Positions 2 to 33,000 of a DNA stretch of 64,000 nucleotides are shown here, in pieces. Location: contig CAZRVK010000003.1 in NCBI GenBank assembly GCA_964603585.1, positions 3,693-67,692 of the forward strand. Direction: 5' to 3'. The notes below the pieces were generated by a model that had not been told where the DNA came from, ran no database searches, and saw only the letters and a list, made by a program, of their open reading frames with translations. The translations under genes and the position numbers were made by a program. This DNA is from an uncultured Planctomycetales bacterium (lineage in GTDB: Bacteria; Omnitrophota; Gorgyraeia; Gygaellales; Profunditerraquicolaceae). Within the stretch, counting starts at the first letter, position 1. Every line of letters begins with the position of its first letter.

Positions 2-3000
2 GGGAGTATGTTTACTTCAATAGCTCCTGTACTTATCTTAAGAGGAGTGCCAGAAGCCTTAGCCCGAGCCAAGCAAAGAGGTATAACAGTGATCATGGTG
101 TTAAAGCCGGCATATGATCTTGAGACCTCAACCCTTGAAGGAGGGTTCAGAGCCTTAACGCCGGTACTATTAGCCAAGGCATTTGAAAGAAGCATACAGG
201 AGATCACCGGAACAGCATTGAAACTACAGGACTTCTTTACTCATGTATACTTACCCAGATCGCCTAAACAGTATCATCCGCAGGTAGTTAAAGTAAAGGA
301 AAAGAGCAAGACATATAAAGTCAGCGGTAAACAGGGAGAAGTAGACCTGTTTAATGAACAGGGCAAAGCTGCAATAGATGCGATATCAGATACAGTTGCT
401 TATACCGAAGCCGCAGCAGTTATTGCAAAACTGGTCAATGACAATACCAATCTCACGCAAGAAGGCATAGATGCAAAACTCGGGAAGACTTTGAAACTTT
501 CGAAGTTCCTGCCGATGCCGGTGGTCGAGACAACGGAAGAAGAAGCGGCATATTTCGCATCGTTAGGCATTACTCCCAGGATTCTTGACCAGGATAATGA
601 TTTTATGATGTGGACAGGCAAGGTACATTTTAACCCGGACACCTTAACACAACACATCAGAGATGATGCTGCAACTCAGCTGCAGACCAGTGGGGTGAGG
701 AAATCAGAAATTGGTAAAACTAACTGGGGATATATTACTGAGAATATCGGCCAAGGCCAAGCGATAAAAATGGTATTGCTTAATGTTGTTTCTCCTGAAC
801 ATACTGCTAGAGACCAAGGGCCATTCCCTGTAGAGACTTTAATCGCTCATCTTCGTAGAAATATGCGAGATTCTTCTTGTGCTGTGCAAATTTATCTTAT
901 TGATATGCAGAAGATATTGAAGCGTCTGGAATATGAAGATAAAATCCCTGGGCAGGCAAGAAGATTCGAATTATGTTATCAAGAAATGGCAAATCTTATA
1001 GCAGATATAGAGCCTTCCGTTGTTGGTTTATCTATGAAATGGGGGTCGGTGGAACCTGCGACTACAATACTTAATAATGTGAGAGAAAGATTGCAGGCAG
1101 GTAAATATATTATACTCTTAGGAAATACTATACCAACCTTTTGCTATTATGAGCTTCTTGCAAAACCGGAATTCAAGGATGCATTTATGGTGGTAGGGGA
1201 AGGAGAAGTCCCTTCGCAAAATATTATTGAAATAGTCTGTGCAAATCGTGATACATTCGCTTTGGAAGGTCGAAGAGATATTTATAAGAGCATATCCGGT
1301 TTGGCATTTATGGCAAACGGCCAGATGATTGGGCCGCGTAGGGAATGTATGGATTTAGCCAAATTTACAATGCCACAAGGGAATGATATTAAGGATCTGT
1401 TTGAGGGTGGTGCTAGTATCCCTATAGAAGGCAGTAGGGGTTGTGCTTGGGGACATTGTACTTATTGTGCAATCCAAGGATTATTTGGCGACCCTGTCTG
1501 GAGGCCTTATAGTGTGGAAGAACTTTTAGCTAGAATAAGGTATTTTGTCAGCCGGGGGCAAAATAGATTTTATTTTATTGATGCGGAGTTTGTAGGCCCG
1601 GTTAAAACCGAAGAAGAATTTGAATCTTCAATGGAGCGGTTGGAAGAAATAGCAGATGGCCTAGAGGCGATCAATGCGGAGTTGCGGCAGCAGAAAAGAG
1701 AAGAGGTGGTTATTACCAGCATTAATGCCCGCGCAAAGGTGTTTTATAATGAGCGTGCTCCCGAAAGAAGGTCGCGCAGCAAAGCAGTATTTGAGAAACT
1801 TAAGAGAGCTCATTTTATGAAGGTGTTTATAGGCATCGAATCGGGATCTTCGGAGCAATTAAGGCGTTATGGCAAAGGTGCTACTGTCAAAGAAAACGAA
1901 GAAGCAATTAGAATGTTAAGGGATGAGATCGGTTTGGATATGGAGCCTGGTTTTATATTCTTTGACCCCGCTGCAACATTAGAAGAATTATTAGAGAATC
2001 TGGCATTTATAAAAAGAATGAGACTGTATGAACTTGATTCACGACTATTAGGGGCTTTGCGTATTCAAGAGGGTGGATCAGCGGTGCGGCTTTATAAGGA
2101 TTTGATTACAGGGAATAAAGATTTGGAAACTGTAAGTTATCCATATCGATTTAAACATCCTGAGGTAGCATATATTGAAACGGTTTTCTCGATTTGGGAA
2201 AGACAAGCGCGATATTTAGTTAAAAAACTGCATAATTTGGAGCGGGAGCATTTTGATCCTAATGCTAAGGCATTTCTTAAAGGATTTATTACTGAATTAA
2301 GAAGTATCGACTTCGAATTTATTGAAGTTTTGATTAATGCGAAGCTGTCGGGTAATAACACGGAAGACGTAGCTAGGATTTATTTGGCTAAAATGAAAGA
2401 TATCTTCGATAGATTAGGAACTGCTCTTACTGTCAATGTGGCAGGCTTTTCACTAGCTGTGATTAATACGCTAATAGAAGAAGATTTGCCGAAAGCATAT
2501 GCTGAGAACACTGTTTTTATGCAAAATATAAAAGATGTACCCCCGGAAAATGATAAGGCAGCTGAGTTGCAGACCTCCTCCTTACGTAAATCTCGCACCA
2601 CAGAAACCGACGCAGCGTTAACCGAGCTATTAAGCCTGCAGACTAAGATGCAAGAGTATGATGAACTCGCCAGAGCCGAGCAGGAATCTTTATCAGCCGC
2701 GCACGCCGCAATCGAATCGCGTGCATCGCCTGTAACTATTTCCGAAGCCACTTTTGAATATTTCACTGGCTCCGCATCGAATTATCCACAAGCTTTAAAA
2801 GATGAGCTAACTAGTCTTCAGTTCCAGTCAAGAAATCATTGGCATTACCAGTTTTTATTACAGCTTTTTGCTGGCAATCAAGATTTGTTAGATGCAGCTA
2901 TTTGGCAAGAAGCTACTAATACGAACAGGACTTTTGTCCAGGTAGTTTTAGGATGTGTGGGCGTTGGTTCTCTGCCCACTCCCCAGGAATTAGGCGTTAT

Positions 3001-6000
3001 CCGTAGGCAACCGACTGCCGGATCAGCCGCAGAGGAGTTCATCAATGAATATCTTGTAATGGGCGGCGGTGGTTTTAATACTTCCGGACCAGCCAGGTCA
3101 ATGATTGATTATTATAGAAGGTTACCTGCCGATCAGCAAGAGGAGTTCAAAGGGAGATTATTGGTTGCCGCAGCAACAGCAAGTTTTGATGATGGAGGGA
3201 ATTCATTATTTATCCAAAAGACTATTTTTGAGATGTTCGGTATTTACATGCCTGCAGTGGGAGATATGGCTAGCTTAGCATCGTTCCTTTGTTTGGATAA
3301 ATGGTTTAAGGATTATGGGCAGTATACGGATCATCCGGATTATGCCCCGACCTTAAGGCAGGCTAAGACGCAACTGATCCTTGTTAATGCAAATAGGATG
3401 GAACTAAATGGTACTTCTAGTTGTGAATCATTAATGAGAGTAAGACTTGCAGATATACATACTAAGCAGAATTTTGACAAGCCATCTAACTGGCTGACAT
3501 TTTGTTCTAACATGCTTTCAGCGGCGCGGTTAATAGATGAAACATTCTTAAGTAAAGGTAAGCTTATATCCGGTAGCGCTGCATCGGTAGGAAATATTGT
3601 TGTTTTAGCTTCGCAGTTAGCCGCAGGCACAATTCAGCATAAGGCAAGAGGGCCGTTAAATTGTAATAAACTCATGGATGCTATCGGCGGATTTGATGAT
3701 ATGTATGCTTGTTTAGCTTCATTTGATGAAGGGACAATTGTTTCAGTATTTGAAGACGGTACATTAGTTTATACACAAACCCATACCACTGACGATGAGC
3801 ATCCGGCTTTAATAGATCATCTCATGCTTTATAAGCAGCGCAGAGACGCGGTAACCGGAATCCCTGTGCTTGATGAAAAAGGAAAAGAGATTTACGATCC
3901 GATGCCGCTTGAAGAGAGGCCTCAGGCCAGTCAAGAGTTGATCAATTTAATCGATCATACCCAAAAAGCTATCTATGTAGGCGCAGGCAGCATGTTTACT
4001 TCCATTGCTCCTGTTTTAATTTTAAGAGGGGTTGCAGAAGCATTAGCTAGAGCCAAGGCAAGGGGAGTATCAGTGATATTCGTATTCAAACCATCTTATG
4101 ACCTTGAGACATCTACATTGAGTGAAAATGGGGAATTCAGGTATTTATCTCCTAAGCCTCTTGCTCAGGCAGTAGAGAAGAGCATTAAAATAATCACCGG
4201 CACCACGCTTTCATTATCGGACATGTTTAGTCACGTGTATTTACCAAGAGTCCCTAAGAAGTTTCATCCACAAACTAAGAATGTCAAGGCCAAGAGTATC
4301 GGTTTTAAGGTAGCGGCAGGAAAGGATCCGGTAACTGGAGAAAAGAGAGAAGCATATCTGTTTAGTGAACAAGGCAAAGCAGAGATTGCGAAGATTGAAG
4401 ATTCTTTGCCTTGTACAGTCACGGCTGCTAAGTTGATGGCTATTGTCAAAGTTAAAGAAAATCTCACGCCAGAAGGACTTGCCGCAAAAGAAGGCAAGAA
4501 CTTAAAGGCCAGCAAGTTCATCGCCCTTCCCGCGGTAGAGACTACCGATGCAGAAGTTGAATATTTCAGGACTCTTGGGATTATCCCCAGGATTCTTGAT
4601 AAAGATGGAGATTACTTTATCTGGACCGGTAAGGCGCACTTCATACCGGATACTATCACTGGATATGTTAGGGAAGATGCGAATAGCTTAGGCTTGCAGA
4701 CTAGTGGGGTAAGGAAGGATGCGGATAGTGCATTGATATCTTCGAAACAAGGGATCATGGATCTGGAGAAGAAGAATAATTTATGGAGAGGACATGGTCT
4801 TTTGTTAAGGAATAAACATACCAATACAGGGTTGGTTATTTTGGCCGAGTCTAAGACCGGGAAATCTAATATTGCAAACCAGGTTCTTAATCTTGATCCT
4901 AACGGGTGGGAAATAATCGCGAATGACTTTATAGAATGGACCTTCGATGGCGATACTAATTCTCTTTATGCCGGGCTGAGATTTTCAAACAAGCCATCCA
5001 TTTTTTGGTTTAGAAACGAAAGCAAAAGAAAGTATGTAAGACCCAACCATATTGATAAGAGAGAATGGGTTTTAGTTACAAAAGTATATTGTTTGGTTAA
5101 AGAAGGGCAGAGTATCGAGGATGTGTTGCGCTATAACCAGGCAGGAGGAGAAACGAGAAAACCGTTAGCAGAATTCCCAGGCATAATGGATATTGCGATT
5201 AAGATTGATGTTCCACCCCAGTTAAGCAGCGCATATTTTATTTCTGCTGCAAAAGAAATAATCACTACTTTCCCCAAAGTATTTAGCGCGAATGGTTTTG
5301 CTGAAGAGAAGATTAAAGGACTAAACCAGCTTTATAAACGCGTAGATTTTCATAAGGTTGCGGCTTTCTTATTTAAGAGGGATGGTAAGGCAGCGGTTGT
5401 AATGTTAGGTTCTGATGTTGAAAAAGATGCATTATGGGATGATAAGAATGGGATTCTTAAGGGTAATGTTGATGAGTTAACCCTTTGGATAAATCACGTT
5501 TTTGGGTTAGATCTTCGCGGATGGGAATTGATAAGGGATATAAGGAATCCACCGATTATTTTCCGTAATAGCGCAGTTTTTACAAGCTTTAACGATGATG
5601 AGCTCGGAGATGAGCTGGAAGTCGAACATTATGTATTCGCCGGCATATTTTACATTGGTGATGAAAAAATGATAGCCAAACGGGTAAAAGCGGTACAGCG
5701 GCCAGCTTTTAAAACATACGAGTACCCGGTTGACAGAGTTGATGAATTTTCCAGAGAATTGAGGTCGCGAATTTTCCCTTGCCCCAGAATAAGTACTCCT
5801 TCTGGGGAGGTTTTAGGGGTTAAGGAAGTAATATTGCGAGAGCTAGATAGTGTAAAAAAAGAGCAATTTAGCAGCCCGCAGAAGCTCAAAGAATTAATAT
5901 CCCGCTACGTAAAAGATACTCCTGGTATAAGCGATAATAATTTGCATAGTAGCGTGGAACAAATATATGCACAGTACTCCTTTGTCACAAAAGCCTTTAA

Positions 6001-27000: not shown

Positions 27001-30000
27001 TGATCAAAGCTGGGCGGAAGAATTAAAGAAAGAGTCTTTACGCCGTGCGGCAGGCGAGATCAAGAACCGTGATATCTTTATCCTTCAGATGGAATATGAG
27101 TTGTCTTTTAAGTTCCTGCAGGAGTTTTGTGAATACCTGGTCAAGGTAAAAGGGTGTTCTTTATCTGATGCAGTCTATAACACTGGAGAGGTAGCAAAGA
27201 TCCTGATGGCCGGTGGTTTAGGCAGTTTTAAACCGGATCTTGTCCGGGGCTGGTATAAATCTTTAGCTCTGCATTGGGGAGGGATCGAGGCCAGAAAGCG
27301 GTTGAATGTGTTCGGGATATTATACTCCGAAGCGATTAAGGGCCAGGGGGTGATCCATCCGCGCGGGGCAATATCAAAAGATGATATCAACGATATATTA
27401 AGAGGGGCATTATTTAAGGTAAAGACTTACGCTGATATTGAGCTTAATATGAACGGTATCGGTAAGGTCAGTGTGGATATTTATATGAACCCTTATTCGG
27501 AATTAAATGAGTATTGGCTGTATTGCCCCCAGGTGTTCCATGAGGCGTATTGTGGCGGCTCGGATGATGATTTCAGGGCATTACAGACATTGCTTTATCG
27601 CAAAGTGCTGTTACGGTTCATTAAGGATGGGATCCATGACGGGGTTTTCAGCCGGGATCTAATATTTTCTACCAGTGAGGTAAACACGACGCTGGCGGTT
27701 CCCAGGGCCGTTAATGACGAATACAGGGATGATCCTTGTTTTAGCCGGCTTTTAGTCCATCATTATAACCATACTATCGTTCCCGCCGGGATGCCTTGTT
27801 ATAATTCTTACATGTTTGACGCCTTGAGTATCGCGGATGAGTTTAGAGATGCTATATATGAAGGAAAAGTTGACCTGGTAAAAATAACCGGCCGGGTAAG
27901 CGATGTGATCACCGGATGCTCTACCTCTCATACCGAGATCTTGCGCGATCAGATATTTAAGGAATTCGCGGATAAAGTTACCGAGAATGATCTGTTCGGT
28001 AACAGCGAAGGTTCGGATATTGAAAGATGGCAGGGTAAAGCGGTTCAGGGCCTGATTGCACAGCTTATGAGGGTAGTTAAGGCAAAAGATTATGTTGAGT
28101 TATTCGAAAAACTGGACAGTAACTCCAGGATGAAGGCAATGTTCGTGAGAAAGCTATTGGCGATTAAAAAACAGCAGAAAAAGGTTTTAGTTTCTGATCT
28201 TTTCGCTGGGTTATTCGGCCAGATAGACGTGACAGAAAGCGACCTTGCTTCTGTCGGCACTAATTTTATCGACCGGCCCATATTTACTTTTGTCAGGCGC
28301 TTTGTGGATTATAAGTGCGGTGATCTTATCGTGGATATCCTTTATGACCCGGGTTATCGTCAGAGGATTGTTGATTCCGGGGCAGTGCTTTTTATTGGAG
28401 GAAGAAAATTCGGGTTGTTTGCCGATGTCCAGCATAACCGGATAAAAGAATTGATCAAGATCGATCCGCGCATGAAATACCATATTGTTTTTGTCTCAAA
28501 CCACAATGTATTTACCTCCTGGGAAATCCAGCAGGGTACGGATTTTGGCGGTATGTTGTCATGGAAAGGCAAAGAGGCCGGTCCGACAAGTTTTGGGAAC
28601 GCCCAACAAAACGGCGCGCCCAGTTTCGCTTCTCCGGACGGGGTGATTTCAGAAAGGGTAAGGCCAGCTAAACGCGATGCAAAAGGTAAAGTTATCGGCG
28701 GCACAGGTTATATCGTTAAATATGGCCAGGAACGTTCTTTTTCCGGTGATATAAAACCGGACCGCGAGTCTTTTGTTAAGAACCTGGAGCAGGCCTGCGC
28801 AGATTATTTCGATGTAGAAAATTATGGGACTCTGGCGTATAACGCTTTGCGCATGAGTTTGACCCAAGGGGATATTTGCAATCAGGCTAAAGGTTTGATC
28901 ATGGTTTGGGCAGATATGGTCAAGGCAAGAAAAAAAGAAACAGCGCCTGTTGCAGATCAAGCTTCTTCCATGGGCTTATTATTTGATCCGGTATTGCTTT
29001 CTTATTTAGCCGCAAATTATCTGGTTATATTTACGGCATTCTTCTTGATCTTGTGGTTGTTAGAAAAAGGCATTCTTCCTTCCGTATTTGCCCGCTGCAG
29101 TGCCGAAACAGATTGTTCTACCTTCCGTGGCTGGTGGGGAACAATAACCCTTTTATCAAGGGCGTTTCGGCACGCAGCCGGGCTTAATAAAGGGGACGTT
29201 TCTATTTTCGCAGCGCTTAAGACTATGGCGAAAATAGAAACGTCCCCTTTATTCAAGTATTGGCTATTATTAAAGACTTTAAAAAAGAGTTTATTAACCT
29301 TGCCAGGACAAACTGGGTTTAACCGTATTCGCTGGGCTCATTTAATAGCCGCTGGGTTATTTGTGATTGCTCCTATGGTTGGTTGTGCATCCCATGGGGA
29401 AAAGCGCGTGGATATGCATTATATCGGCCAGTCAGCAAATCAGGTAGTGATAAATGTCCAAGGGAGTATGCCGGTTATGCCAAGAATAAAAGCCGAAGGC
29501 TTGGCTATCGGGTTTGAAGGGTTTGCCGCCGGGAATATGCGGGCATTCTTAAAGAGTTTGGGTATGGCTAAAATTACCTCTAAAATGCGTTTTTATATGG
29601 CCGCAGATAATCCGGATTTAGCTAAAGAACTGGCAGTCGAAGCCAGCCAAAACGAAAAGATCCTGGTAGTTTTAGGATATAGTTCAAGTAACAGTATTGC
29701 CGGAAATGGCGGAAGATATGCTTTTGTAGAGGAGTTATCCCGTTTAGGCGTTGGTGTAGATCTCTTAGTTGTATTTGATGATACCTGGAGAAAAGATATT
29801 CCCGCAAACGTCCGGGCAGTGATAAATATCCATACAAGCAGTATTTTTAACGGCACATTATTGACGCGTAAGAAAATAAAAGGCAGTGATACCTGGGCGG
29901 TAGATATGCGTTTCTTTGATCTGCATCATGTCCGGATGCCTTTAGCTAAAGGCAAGGCCCGTACCGATTATGAAGAATGGACCAGGCAATTATATACGGC

Positions 30001-33000
30001 GATAATTATCGAAGCGATGAATTATATCTGGCAAGAGAAACATCCTGATATAAAAACAGTTCATACGACACAGCCTGTTGCTAAAGAACCCGCACCGGCG
30101 TTACCAACCCCGAAACGTCCAATAAACAGACTGCCTGCTGATCATAAAAACAGTTTGTGCCTGCCTTTAGCTTCAGGGAATATTTCTCTAATAATGATGA
30201 TCTTATTCGTTGGTGTATTTGTAGTTGTGCAGAATGTGTCGAGGCCTGGTAATTATAAAGGAAGGCCTAAGAAATGGAATTTAGATACTCTAACTGCAGA
30301 ATTAAGTAGGATGTATCGCACGGGCAGGGATTCTCGCGGGAAAAAATATTATCCTGAAGACCTGGTATATTCAAAGAAACGCGGCTGGCCTTCAGGGATC
30401 CAAAGGTCTTATCAGGGGATGTTCAAGTCCGCGCATTACCTGATCAATAAGAAATGCAAGGAGATCGATCCTTCGTTTAAAGGGTTTCTTGCGCGTGATG
30501 CCTGGATCACGCTTTGCACCTTAGCCGATATTGATTATTTTAATCTTGAACGAACCGCCAAAGCGAGAGTAGCGCGCAGGCAAGAAGCAGAAGGTGTAAA
30601 GTTTTATCCGCATTCTGCCACAAGTTTGAATGCCGATCTGGATGATATTGTCTCGCCGGAAAAAGGATCGATCATGTCCTTCGCTGAAATACTTGGTTTG
30701 GCTGATCTGCGCGATAGAGAAAGGCAGGTATTATATTTATATTATGAAAAAGGCTTTATCGATGAACAGATCGGCGAGATGCTTGGCCCGAAACAATTAA
30801 CAAAGGCTGGTGTACAAATAATAAGAAAGCACGCTATAGATAAGATAAGAGTTGCTTTGTTAGGAGAAGACTTAAAGGCGGATAGGGAATCTGGTTTGAG
30901 GATCATCATCGAAGATGATTTGGCTGCGGCAAGAAAAGCTCTGGGAGTCGTTCGGTCAGTAAAGAGAGGCAATTGTTTTAGTGCTGTGAGTTATTCGCAG
31001 CCCGTTCGGTACCGTTCTGGTTGTTTGGGGATAAATTACGCAAGGCTTAATGATATGGGAAGGCTGATTGTTGATCTGCCGGGGAAAGACCAATACCGTG
31101 CTTTATTTAGTACTTATGGCGGGCAAAGTGTAAGGTATACAGTTGTCCGTGATGCAGAAGGCCAATTGCTGGTTGATGAATCCTCGATCATGCTTTTGGA
31201 TGTAAGTGATAATCCTCTTGTTGGAGATGGATTGACATATATAGTAGACCCCGTAACGAATATGATCCGCGGGCATTTGCCGAGGCAAAATTTGAGCGTT
31301 TCTTCGCGCAAAATGCTGAATGGATTAGTGATAAAGAATTATCCTTTAACTTCTCAAGGATACCTTTGTTTCGGCAGGACAGATTTAGGTGATATTTGTA
31401 CGATCACCAGGTTTAAAGATGCTTCTTCAGGGGATACTGTTGATTTTACGATAAAAGAAGGCGCGATAGAACGCGTTTATTTTAAAGGCAGAGAGTGTGC
31501 TGCTTGTATGGCAATAGGCGAAGACGGGCTGCCGGTAGATTCATTTATCTTTAATGAGAAATTCCCGGAAAGGATCTCTAAGCTTATACGATCAGGCAGG
31601 ATAAGTGCCATTGATCTTGTAGTAAATAAGAAGAACTGTTTTGTTTTAAGTAAATCACTGGCATGCTCTTTTCTTGGCTGGGGGGATTTTAGAGGCAGGA
31701 AGATAAGGGTATTTTTTGCTCCAGGTAGTGACAAGATCGAACGTGTTGTTGTAACCGGAAAGAATGATGAAGAACTTGTTATCACAGCAGAGCAACTAAG
31801 GCGAAGACATTTGGAATATTTCAGTTTGTTTTTAGAAAATATACGGTCTTTAAGATCAGTAAGAAAGAGAGGATTAGGCAGGCTTGCAGGATTAACCGGC
31901 AGAGAGATCATTTCTCGGATAAAGAGAGATCTTTATCGCTACTGCCCGTTAGTATATGTACTCGCAGAGCGGCAGACGAAAGAAGGCACTGCTCAAATAA
32001 GTGCATCTCTTCCGGATAGCCATAGTTTTTGGCGCCAGGTTTATGAAAGAAGATCTCAAATCGTTAAGTGTGTGCTTGATGGTATTGTCGATGGAGAGCC
32101 TCTGGTAGAGATCTCCCGGAAAATAGAAACTACTCTTGAAGAAGTCTCTGCGATCTTTGAATCCTTGGCATTTGTGGAAGAGATAACCAGTTTCTACGGA
32201 AAAACCATTGAGAAAAAAGAATCGGCAAGAAGAGAGAGGATCCATAAGGTTACCCCAAAATACCGGATGAAGTTTATGCATGCCCCGAGGAATAAATATT
32301 TAATAGATAACGAGATACTATTGGTTGGATGTATGACTTGGAAGGATGATGTGGTTTTGGCGGAGATCGATAATTACGTCCAGAATATGGCCGGGGTGAT
32401 CTTGGCTGCGGCTAGGATTTATAAATGGAGAACAGGGAATCCAGCGGTGATCGCCCTGCTTTCGGATCATACGGCAAATGATAAAGCCGGGATTGATCCA
32501 CTTGTAGGTGAGCGGTTTGAGAATGTTTATGGCGGAATCATCGAGCGTGCTCAAAGGTTAGCTGAACAATTAGCGGTAGATGAAGGGGTGACTTTAGTTT
32601 TTGCCGGAAGAGGTAATATTCAGGTAGATGCCGCTATAACCCCGGACCGCTATGAGAAGAAAACCGGGCTTAAGCCGGAAGCCGGCAGTTTTCCGGCGAA
32701 TGTTTTTATATTCCCTAATTTGCACGCTTTTCAGTTTTGCCGTGATGCTGCGAAATTAGGGTGGTATTTAGAAACAAGCAATAACGGCGGCGGGATCTTT
32801 GATGTGATTTACCGCCGCCTGTCTAATGCCCCGGCAAATGCTTTGCCGCAGGTGATCTTTACGGAAACGCTTAATTCTCAAGACGGCGGTTTAAGTTTCA
32901 GGGTTATTAATGCCGCTTTAGCAGTAGCCGAAGCAGGGTTGGCAAAGGCGGTTTTAGTTTCCCATGAGCCGGAAATAATCAAGGAAACATTCCCGCAAGC

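Follow-up and report, generated by a model that had tools for sequence, protein, structure and literature searches.

A copy of a dispersed palindromic repeat lies in frame beside an internal lipoprotein signal in a giant multi-enzyme reading frame

The window analysed here, a 64,000-nucleotide (nt) stretch of contig CAZRVK010000003.1 from an uncultured bacterium of the Omnitrophota lineage, is spanned by one open reading frame (ORF). The frame whose codons start at nt 2 contains no stop in all 64,000 nt. What the window covers is thus the interior of a longer ORF, with 21,333 amino acids (aa; positions 2-64000, plus strand) as its minimum length and both ends beyond the window. Pfam domains, some full-length and some partial, are strung along this single frame: enzymes of sugar and carbon metabolism (PGI, at 795 bits, PGM I-III, ROK, HAD, glycogen phosphorylase and PTA), glutamate dehydrogenase (GDH), PALP, cytidine deaminase, DUF362, radical SAM, HD and methyltransferase domains, and the signalling and regulatory domains response regulator, HATPase and sigma-70 region 4. 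A scan of the frame found 58 hydrophobic windows, and the ORF has about 50 hydrophobic segments, with dozens of transmembrane (TM) helices. Between two of its modules lie a perfect hairpin (29186-29253) and, downstream, a lipoprotein-type signal peptide (29321-29386, plus strand), a juxtaposition for which the original prediction proposed, among other explanations, a hairpin-gated internal start or a lipoprotein gene fused in frame. We assign a probability of about 0.7 to the reading that these are two independent features standing side by side, namely a repeat copy tolerated in frame within the linker between modules and a retained internal signal.

The two arms of the hairpin (29186-29211 and 29228-29253) are complementary in 26 of 26 positions and enclose a 16-nt loop (29212-29227). 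Re-measurement reproduced these coordinates and the 100% complementarity first reported, together with the in-loop ATG in the phase of the ORF (29225-29227, plus strand, at the 3' end of the loop), the stop-free frame around the hairpin and the downstream peptide with its MVGC lipobox. The hairpin is the sole perfect inverted repeat in the window of at least 16 nt with arms no more than 200 nt apart, and a 26-base-pair (bp) repeat of this kind would be expected about 3e-9 times by chance (an estimate from ~64,000 positions x 200 spacings x 4^-26). As RNA, the 68-nt hairpin folds at -40.3 kcal/mol against a shuffle mean of -11.5 (z = -10), and as DNA at -28.1 kcal/mol; the original judgement that the stem is far beyond chance holds. 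The ORF reads the hairpin in the sole plus-strand phase free of stops, the remaining two phases stopping at or inside the element, at a TAA in the flank (29185), a TAG in the right arm or a TAA in the loop. Use of the only open phase fits what would be expected if copies survive only in phase. Programmed -1 frameshifting was rejected: the sequence ahead of the stem has no slippery heptamer, and a ribosome in the -1 phase would meet a stop immediately. A search for paralogues of the junction within the window found none.

The analysis shows the hairpin to be a copy of a dispersed, mobile repeat that is usually found between genes. An exact search of 185,579 species genomes with the 20-nt core arm, GGGGACGTTTCTATTTTCGC, returned five loci: three contigs of the Omnitrophota metagenome-assembled genome (MAG) JACQHS01 (~64% GC), one contig binned as Dehalococcoidia, and a lone arm in an Oscillospiraceae/viral contig, the last being at about chance level for a 20-mer in 596 Gb. 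The 19-mer pattern GGGACRTTTCTATTTTCGC recovered 40 metagenome loci, mostly from four samples and all of 57-66% GC. The core arm is thus present in about 45 loci overall, which form a repeat family. Four copies lie on the three JACQHS01 contigs, and up to two copies occur per contig of 1.5-3 kb. Nearly all loci share one build of ~56 nt, in which two complementary arms of 20 nt, near-invariant in sequence, enclose a variable loop of 14-18 nt (16 being the commonest length). The family consensus reads CGGGACGTTTCTATTTTCGC, 16 nt, GCGAAAATAGAAATGTCCCG, with semi-conserved flanks ccCGTG and cGAGAaTAG and the weak loop consensus c.TcGgtTctCgCgaa.

A covariance model, R1, was built from an alignment, A1, of 29 distinct complete copies. 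In A1, 98.1% of stem cells pair and four pairs have changed on both sides; neither value is reached in any of 500 shuffles. A G.T pair occupies arm position 7 in 25 of the 29 copies, and family members fold at -31 to -46 kcal/mol. Applied to the window, R1 finds exactly one copy, the 56-nt core at 29192-29247 on the minus strand (GGGGACGTTTCTATTTTCGC, 16 nt, GCGAAAATAGAAACGTCCCC), scoring 75.3 bits on that strand (E = 1.7e-20) versus 67.5 on the plus strand; all remaining matches have E values of 0.88 or worse. This copy conforms to the family arm definition, (C/G)GGGACGTTTCTATTTTCGC and its complement with 14-18 nt between, and is identical to the GGGG/CCCC arm variant in 40 of 40 positions. 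Its minus-strand loop, CATAGTCTTAAGCGCT, is similar to the family loop CATAGTTTTTCGCTGA in locus L026. Because R1 favours the minus strand and the loop resembles that of L026, the copy is homologous to the family over its full length and lies antisense to the ORF. The 20-nt arm sequence is common to genomes of 44% and ~64% GC.

Comparison with existing collections gave no name for these repeats. Rfam searches of the window region and five repeat loci returned only sub-threshold matches to miRNA-precursor hairpins, a full-text literature search with the arm sequence gave no match, and neither the hairpin nor the family consensus matched any plasmid or phage sequence by blastn; among viral contigs, only the lone Oscillospiraceae/viral arm was found, which we attribute to chance. 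The family is, by these comparisons, an apparently unnamed and previously undescribed set of small dispersed palindromic repeats. In L010 (74-173) a complete hairpin has a further left arm 24 nt upstream, so that one and a half copies stand in tandem, and lone arms occur in promoter-like intergenic regions in L007, L035 and L043. The idea that the loop serves as a hypervariable 'guide' was dropped: loops keep a weak common consensus and for that reason look like the product of relaxed drift or replacement rather than of designed variability. Nor did wobble pairs reveal RNA-strand specificity, as the orienting G.T pair aside there are five wobble pairs and five A.C-type mismatches, which leaves no strand signal.

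The same searches bear on whether the hairpin was made by the assembly, either by a fold-back or by the chimeric fusion of two loci through a repeat that both contain. Family repeats do occur near many contig ends, so assemblies do break there. Against this, no stop interrupts the frame in the 29 kb leading up to the hairpin or in the 35 kb that follow. Codon usage on its two sides correlates at r = 0.965, without a break in GC content or skew, and this continuity of composition and codon usage argues against a chimeric join. Other organisms, assembled independently, moreover carry the identical arms, and the palindrome artefact that the original prediction had named as its own possible undoing is extremely improbable.

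In other genomes, copies with readable flanks lie between genes, and these genomes are GC-rich. In L002, L004, L006, L018, L019 and L039, only a few nt separate the arms from the ends or starts of long flanking ORFs; in L002, one ORF occupies 5011-5838, the hairpin 5839-5894, and the next ORF starts at 5900. The window copy departs from this intergenic placement by lying inside a giant ORF. Flanking genes occur in all four orientations, including co-directional, convergent and divergent, and the orientation of the element itself, which is set by the G.T pair, is independent of the direction of transcription. A dedicated terminator role therefore misfits the family as a whole.

Orthologous loci show both constraint and turnover. 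The hairpin is kept in both members of the pairs L002/L011, L006/L032 and L016/L030, where flanks are 79-95% identical and stems 95-100%, so that the arm sequence is held more tightly than the neighbouring coding DNA; loops in these pairs are 75% identical or cannot be aligned. Between L016 (1459-1514) and L030 (3320-3377), the flanks are 79-85% identical, the stems agree in 38 of 40 positions and the loops (16 versus 18 nt) are unrelated, a pattern that suggests either that a loop was replaced or that the site received insertions independently. Filled and empty sites were found twice: the copy at 2510-2565 of L014 is absent from orthologous L028 (~2991-3006), and that at 609-664 of L015 is absent from L021 (~734-762, reverse strand). 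A copy that is complete in L036 (185-239) is half-deleted in L023 (~1011-1030), where only the right arm is kept. Given these empty orthologous sites and the half-copy, the element has been gained and lost between related genomes.

The constraint on the stems is also what might be expected if the hairpin were a functional RNA element that partitions a very long mRNA at a module boundary, as an intragenic terminator or attenuator that translation suppresses, as an RNase processing site or as a block to 3' exonucleases. In favour stand the high stability of the stem (-40 kcal/mol), the purifying selection on stems at orthologous loci, the position of the element exactly between two modules and its AATAAA and TTTATT flanks, which look like a bidirectional terminator, as in L004 and L019. 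Repetitive extragenic palindromic (REP) elements stabilise upstream mRNA in Escherichia coli operons. Yet there is one copy in 64 kb despite dozens of module boundaries, the homologous junctions described below have no hairpin, and most family copies are missing the T-tract, some of them lying in divergent promoter regions with no terminator role to play. A terminator inside an ORF would in addition yield non-stop mRNAs. We regard a function of this kind as unlikely. Nor does the hairpin have the form of an intrinsic terminator, in which a U-tract directly follows a GC-rich stem with a short loop: the loop here has 16 nt, a terminator scan did not call the hairpin, UUUAUU is placed within the stem, and most copies have no T-tract.

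Among described elements, the family most closely resembles REP elements and REPINs (REP doublets forming hairpins) and very small miniature inverted-repeat transposable elements (MITEs), with inverted pairs of uptake sequences as a further analogue; these are likenesses only. Like REP elements and REPINs, which are mobilised by the Y1 HUH transposases called REP-associated tyrosine transposases (RAYTs), the family consists of short palindromes with many extragenic copies per genome whose arms are conserved above the spacer. It shares with them the extragenic position of the copies read here, the occurrence of singlet half-copies, presence or absence between related genomes, a conserved asymmetric mismatch (the G.T pair noted above at arm position 7) and an orientation independent of transcription. 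On the other side, no RAYT gene was found in the fetched loci, the single arm is not itself palindromic and the window copy lies in a coding frame; a clear counterpart of the 5' GTAG/GTGG of REP elements is not seen, the left-flank consensus ccCGTG (50-70%) containing GTG but neither tetranucleotide. With MITEs such as the Correia elements of Neisseria (CREE/NEMIS), the family has in common that its members are tiny, non-autonomous inverted repeats, present or absent at given sites, that form long RNA hairpins when transcribed, but it is far smaller (56 nt), with no target-site duplication visible at the two empty sites and no parent insertion sequence with these ends found. Inverted pairs of DNA uptake sequences (DUS) of Neisseria and of uptake signal sequences (USS) of Pasteurellaceae, which act as terminators, likewise combine arms of exactly conserved sequence with loops that vary; they too are placed at gene ends, occur singly as well as in pairs and are conserved across related species; the DUS, at 10-12 nt, is shorter than the 20-nt family arm. 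Integron attC sites, whose outer core sites RYYYAAC and GTTRRRY are accompanied by extrahelical bases, were rejected, as neither core site is present at the consensus arm ends. The motifs of sigma-54 promoters and of Tn3-type terminal repeats did not fit either.

The second feature, the internal signal peptide (29321-29386), has the grammar of a bacterial lipoprotein signal: a basic n-region, NRIR, a hydrophobic h-region and then the lipobox MVGC (29375-29386; Cys codon 29384-29386). This signal fits the G+LPP-type pattern, although a Pro at position -4 breaks the stricter PROSITE PS51257 pattern, and the lipobox pattern has only this one match in the 21,333 aa of the window frame. The Cys is residue 9795 of that frame, with the true start of the ORF still further upstream, and the signal accordingly does not occupy the N-terminal position of an ordinary lipoprotein signal. 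It is followed by the mature module (29387-30061, plus strand; aa 9796-10020), which belongs to an uncharacterised family of alpha/beta-hydrolase fold. A CLPLASGN motif, a TM helix and a basic cluster (30158-30277, plus strand) would return the chain to the cytoplasmic side and close the module. Pfam and NCBIfam searches of the lipoprotein module returned no family, a weak match to NF058595 'lipo-invert' (E = 0.18) being disregarded, and a word-index protein search with aa 9601-10100 found no homologues.

A HMMER search with aa 9767-10083 against 1.84 billion representatives yielded ten relatives, among them P0001, of 237 aa (E = 2.6e-40). P0001 is the product of an ordinary small gene in a normal neighbourhood and begins with the signal MSRFISLLGMVIASILLVGC. 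Together with P0005 and P0006 it forms a group of free-standing homologues (237-331 aa) with N-terminal lipoprotein signals of 19-25 aa and the lipobox motifs LVGC (P0001), SLGC/FSGC (P0005) and MSGC (P0006). In three further relatives, P0002, P0003 and P0004, the module is embedded in a larger protein and the corresponding motifs, LTGC, VAGC and LSGC, are internal; the complete internal signals read KRIKSFLRIFAAVVTLFILTGC (P0002), ..TALFAIVVFVAGC (P0003) and RIGRRSFLASLAAVILSGC (P0004). P0002, with 1,510 aa, is part of an Omnitrophica ORF that occupies its whole contig, P0003 has 1,296 aa, and P0004, of 3,891 aa, is encoded beside type II secretion system (T2SS) and type IV pilus (T4P) genes. 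The lipobox Cys is aligned in seven of seven sequences (the window and P0001-P0006) and is kept in all four embedded copies at about 30% identity. On this alignment, the lipoprotein signal comes down from a module of lipoprotein type and is conserved in every embedded copy of it, and the suggestion that a formerly separate lipoprotein gene lies behind the internal signal gains support from the free-standing homologues with their aligned Cys. At residues ~160-185 of P0004, a twin-arginine-like GRRSFLASL precedes the lipobox LSGC of the internal signal, which hints at possible export of that internal module by the twin-arginine translocation (Tat) pathway. At locus L048, a Y1_Tnp (IS200/RAYT-type) gene (621-1247) lies 5 kb upstream of the gene for P0001; the locus has no R1 hairpin and so does not tie this gene to the repeat family.

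The DNA of the embedded homologues separates the two features. Neither the locus of P0002 (L047) nor that of P0003 (L052) contains an R1 match or a strong inverted repeat just upstream of the lipobox; the sole inverted repeat of L047 is 81% complementary and lies ~290 nt upstream, ahead of a TM stretch. As both loci are without a hairpin at the equivalent position, the hairpin falls outside the conserved design of the module, and hairpin and lipoprotein signal are, as far as these DNA sequences tell, unlinked in homologues. The original prediction had named a lack of conserved structure in homologues as a refutation. In the two homologous genes whose DNA could be read the structure is missing, while across the copies of the repeat family it is strongly conserved. 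Nor is a tie between hairpin and lipoprotein start supported by the family itself, which elsewhere sits between unrelated genes.

It is very improbable that the hairpin gates an internal translation start, with the loop ATG opening a lipoprotein precursor once the stem melts. The ATG is in phase, lies in a single-stranded loop and has a lipoprotein signal downstream, as originally noted. But it is the complement of a CAT with which several copies between unrelated genes, read on the family strand, begin their loops; the loop holds no Shine-Dalgarno sequence, and positions +4 to +29 of such a message would be locked in the 26-bp stem. Initiation there would also produce a signal peptide of 53 aa, as against 19-25 aa in the free-standing homologues, and the homologues do without a hairpin.

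The setting of the hairpin is consistent with a tolerated insertion. The upstream module ends in a hydrophobic stretch (28976-29092, plus strand; aa 9659-9697) that may form one or two TM helices, and from there to the signal peptide runs a basic linker of ~76 aa (29093-29320, plus strand), which contains the hairpin. The equivalent linker in P0002 has ~9 aa, and by this comparison the window linker is expanded and poorly constrained. The ORF-phase peptide across the hairpin shares too few exact words for any match in an index of 5.8 billion proteins, so that intragenic copies read in this phase appear to be rare.

It is quite unlikely that the hairpin is instead a fossil spacer between a membrane-protein gene and a lipoprotein gene that were fused through the repeat by loss of a stop. 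Family copies typically lie between a stop codon and the next start, and in L002 and L011 the TAA stop of a gene abuts the repeat arm directly; in the window, a tandem TAA TAA (29185-29190, plus strand, -1 phase), which we record as an observation only, ends 1 nt ahead of the GGGG of the core arm. The downstream module is known as a free-standing lipoprotein gene, and an in-phase TTG 47 nt past the hairpin, 10 nt after an AAGAG motif (29285-29302, plus strand), provides the sole plausible, though weak, candidate internal start for a 28-aa signal peptide, as read from the sequence. An old fossil would nevertheless be expected to have decayed, yet no pair of the stem is broken, and upstream the -1 phase stays open for no more than ~135 nt. 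The embedded homologues, finally, have short linkers without a hairpin, and the fusion therefore probably predates the hairpin.

In the reading that we favour, with two unconnected features, the hairpin would be a single repeat copy inserted antisense into a tolerant basic linker at the junction of two modules or, less likely, carried along from an old intergenic spacer. The repeat would add about 19-23 residues to the linker and would be neutral or nearly so, causing at most a ribosome pause on the -40 kcal/mol stem, and it would exert no control over expression of the downstream module. This history of insertion, and the neutrality of its outcome, are what we infer from the family and from the homologues. 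The signal, for its part, is the authentic N-terminal signal and lipobox of an alpha/beta-hydrolase lipoprotein module that is embedded or free-standing elsewhere, and would thread the hydrolase across the membrane from within the chain. Retention of the Cys in every embedded copy implies that such internal signals are still in use. The internal signal is probably processed by Lgt and Lsp, with lipidation by the former and cleavage by the latter predicted to split the polyprotein at the internal lipobox.

Several observations weigh against this reading. The stem is perfect over 26 bp, unlike the 25 of 29 family copies with G.T at arm position 7, and the A-tract and T-tract flanks lengthen it so that it resembles a bidirectional terminator; either property could reflect selection for an RNA-level role at this site. 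The element stands exactly at a module junction, which is not required of a random insertion, yet linkers do tolerate insertions. No close relative was found that would provide an empty-site comparison at this exact position, and insertion is for that reason indistinguishable from retention of an old spacer. No target-site duplication of the kind left by MITEs is visible at L014/L028, at L015/L021 or at the window copy, and tblastn with a Y1_Tnp protein found no transposase or RAYT in any of the fetched loci. We also found no precedent for action of Lgt and Lsp on a signal ~9,800 residues from the N-terminus.

A possible parallel for such processing comes from viral polyproteins. In the Flaviviridae, as in the arrangement proposed here, a TM helix, a short basic cytoplasmic loop and an internal signal peptide follow one another, and a cut beyond the membrane divides the polyprotein. 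The viral sites are cut by the type I signal peptidase of the eukaryotic host; the window encodes a bacterial lipobox, for which the predicted machinery is the type II pathway of Lgt and Lsp.

The giant ORF itself matches, in its predicted domain content, the multi-enzyme giant proteins described for the Omnitrophota (West-Roberts et al. 2023, bioRxiv 10.1101/2023.11.21.568195; Nielsen and Lui 2026, bioRxiv 10.64898/2026.06.07.730766). Such proteins exceed 10,000 aa and combine many TM helices with metabolic enzyme domains, and the window ORF does likewise. It is comparable to the multi-enzyme class among them, the Archaeovorins, in its length of more than 21,000 aa, its dozens of TM helices and its PGI, PGM, ROK, radical SAM and response regulator domains, as well as in the T2SS/T4P genes that adjoin its homologue P0004; it differs in that no SecA-like domain is seen in the window. 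Among sequences related to it, the homologue P0002 is labelled Candidatus Omnitrophica, and the repeat family occurs in an Omnitrophota MAG. Whether the giant proteins remain one chain or are cut is unknown, and no cleavage points are known, although some of them carry C39 peptidase domains (West-Roberts et al. 2023, bioRxiv 10.1101/2023.11.21.568195). Text searches of West-Roberts et al. 2023 and Nielsen and Lui 2026 for lipoboxes or internal lipoprotein signals, and for palindromic repeats or hairpins, gave no result.

Two further motifs recur along the frame. One, [S]-[L/F/I]-D-N-G-G, is present in 12 copies, where composition would predict 0.23, between 9752 and 23881 (aa 3251-7960). It lies just N-terminal of the starts of PGI, HAD, ROK, response regulator, PGM and GDH domains, does not recur beyond aa 8000 and may mark cleavage or punctuation of the double-glycine type. 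The other, which recurs further along the window (~30158-52600, in its second half), is a unit composed of C-[LFI]-x-P-[LI], ~10 aa, a TM helix and a basic cluster, with copies at aa 10053, 11446, 14389, 15552 and 17508 and with Cys-less variants besides. This unit is reminiscent of the MYXO-CTERM and PEP-CTERM classes of C-terminal sorting signal, though its position here is internal. Beyond the lipoprotein module, residues 65-304 of P0003 are 41% identical to aa 20171-20396 of the window frame, and the PALP region of P0004 is 48% identical to aa 18565-18932. Because module order differs between homologous large proteins, the modules appear to be cassettes shuffled among giant ORFs.

These elements can be joined in a wider scheme that we put forward tentatively and consider rather doubtful. 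Internal lipoprotein signals would be the sites at which Lgt and Lsp cut Omnitrophota giant polyproteins into lipid-anchored enzymes, with [S][LFI]DNGG and the Cys-x-x-Pro-Leu/TM/basic unit as further punctuation. The giant gene would then amount to an operon without stops, and its module junctions would act as intergenic DNA for mobile repeats, hence a hairpin at this junction.

Of the two features, the hairpin is a modest novelty, an unusual in-frame copy from an unnamed family, and the conserved internal lipobox is the more valuable result. The hairpin indicates that a small palindromic repeat can persist inside a reading frame, and it cautions that a perfect intragenic hairpin need not be a regulatory device. 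The internal lipobox, with a Cys homologous to that of free-standing lipoproteins, offers a concrete and testable candidate cleavage point in an Omnitrophota giant protein; were it cleaved, a fragment with the N-terminus diacylglyceryl-Cys-ASHGEK would be expected. The modules of giant ORFs may thus be viewed as shuffled, gene-like cassettes that keep their own targeting signals.

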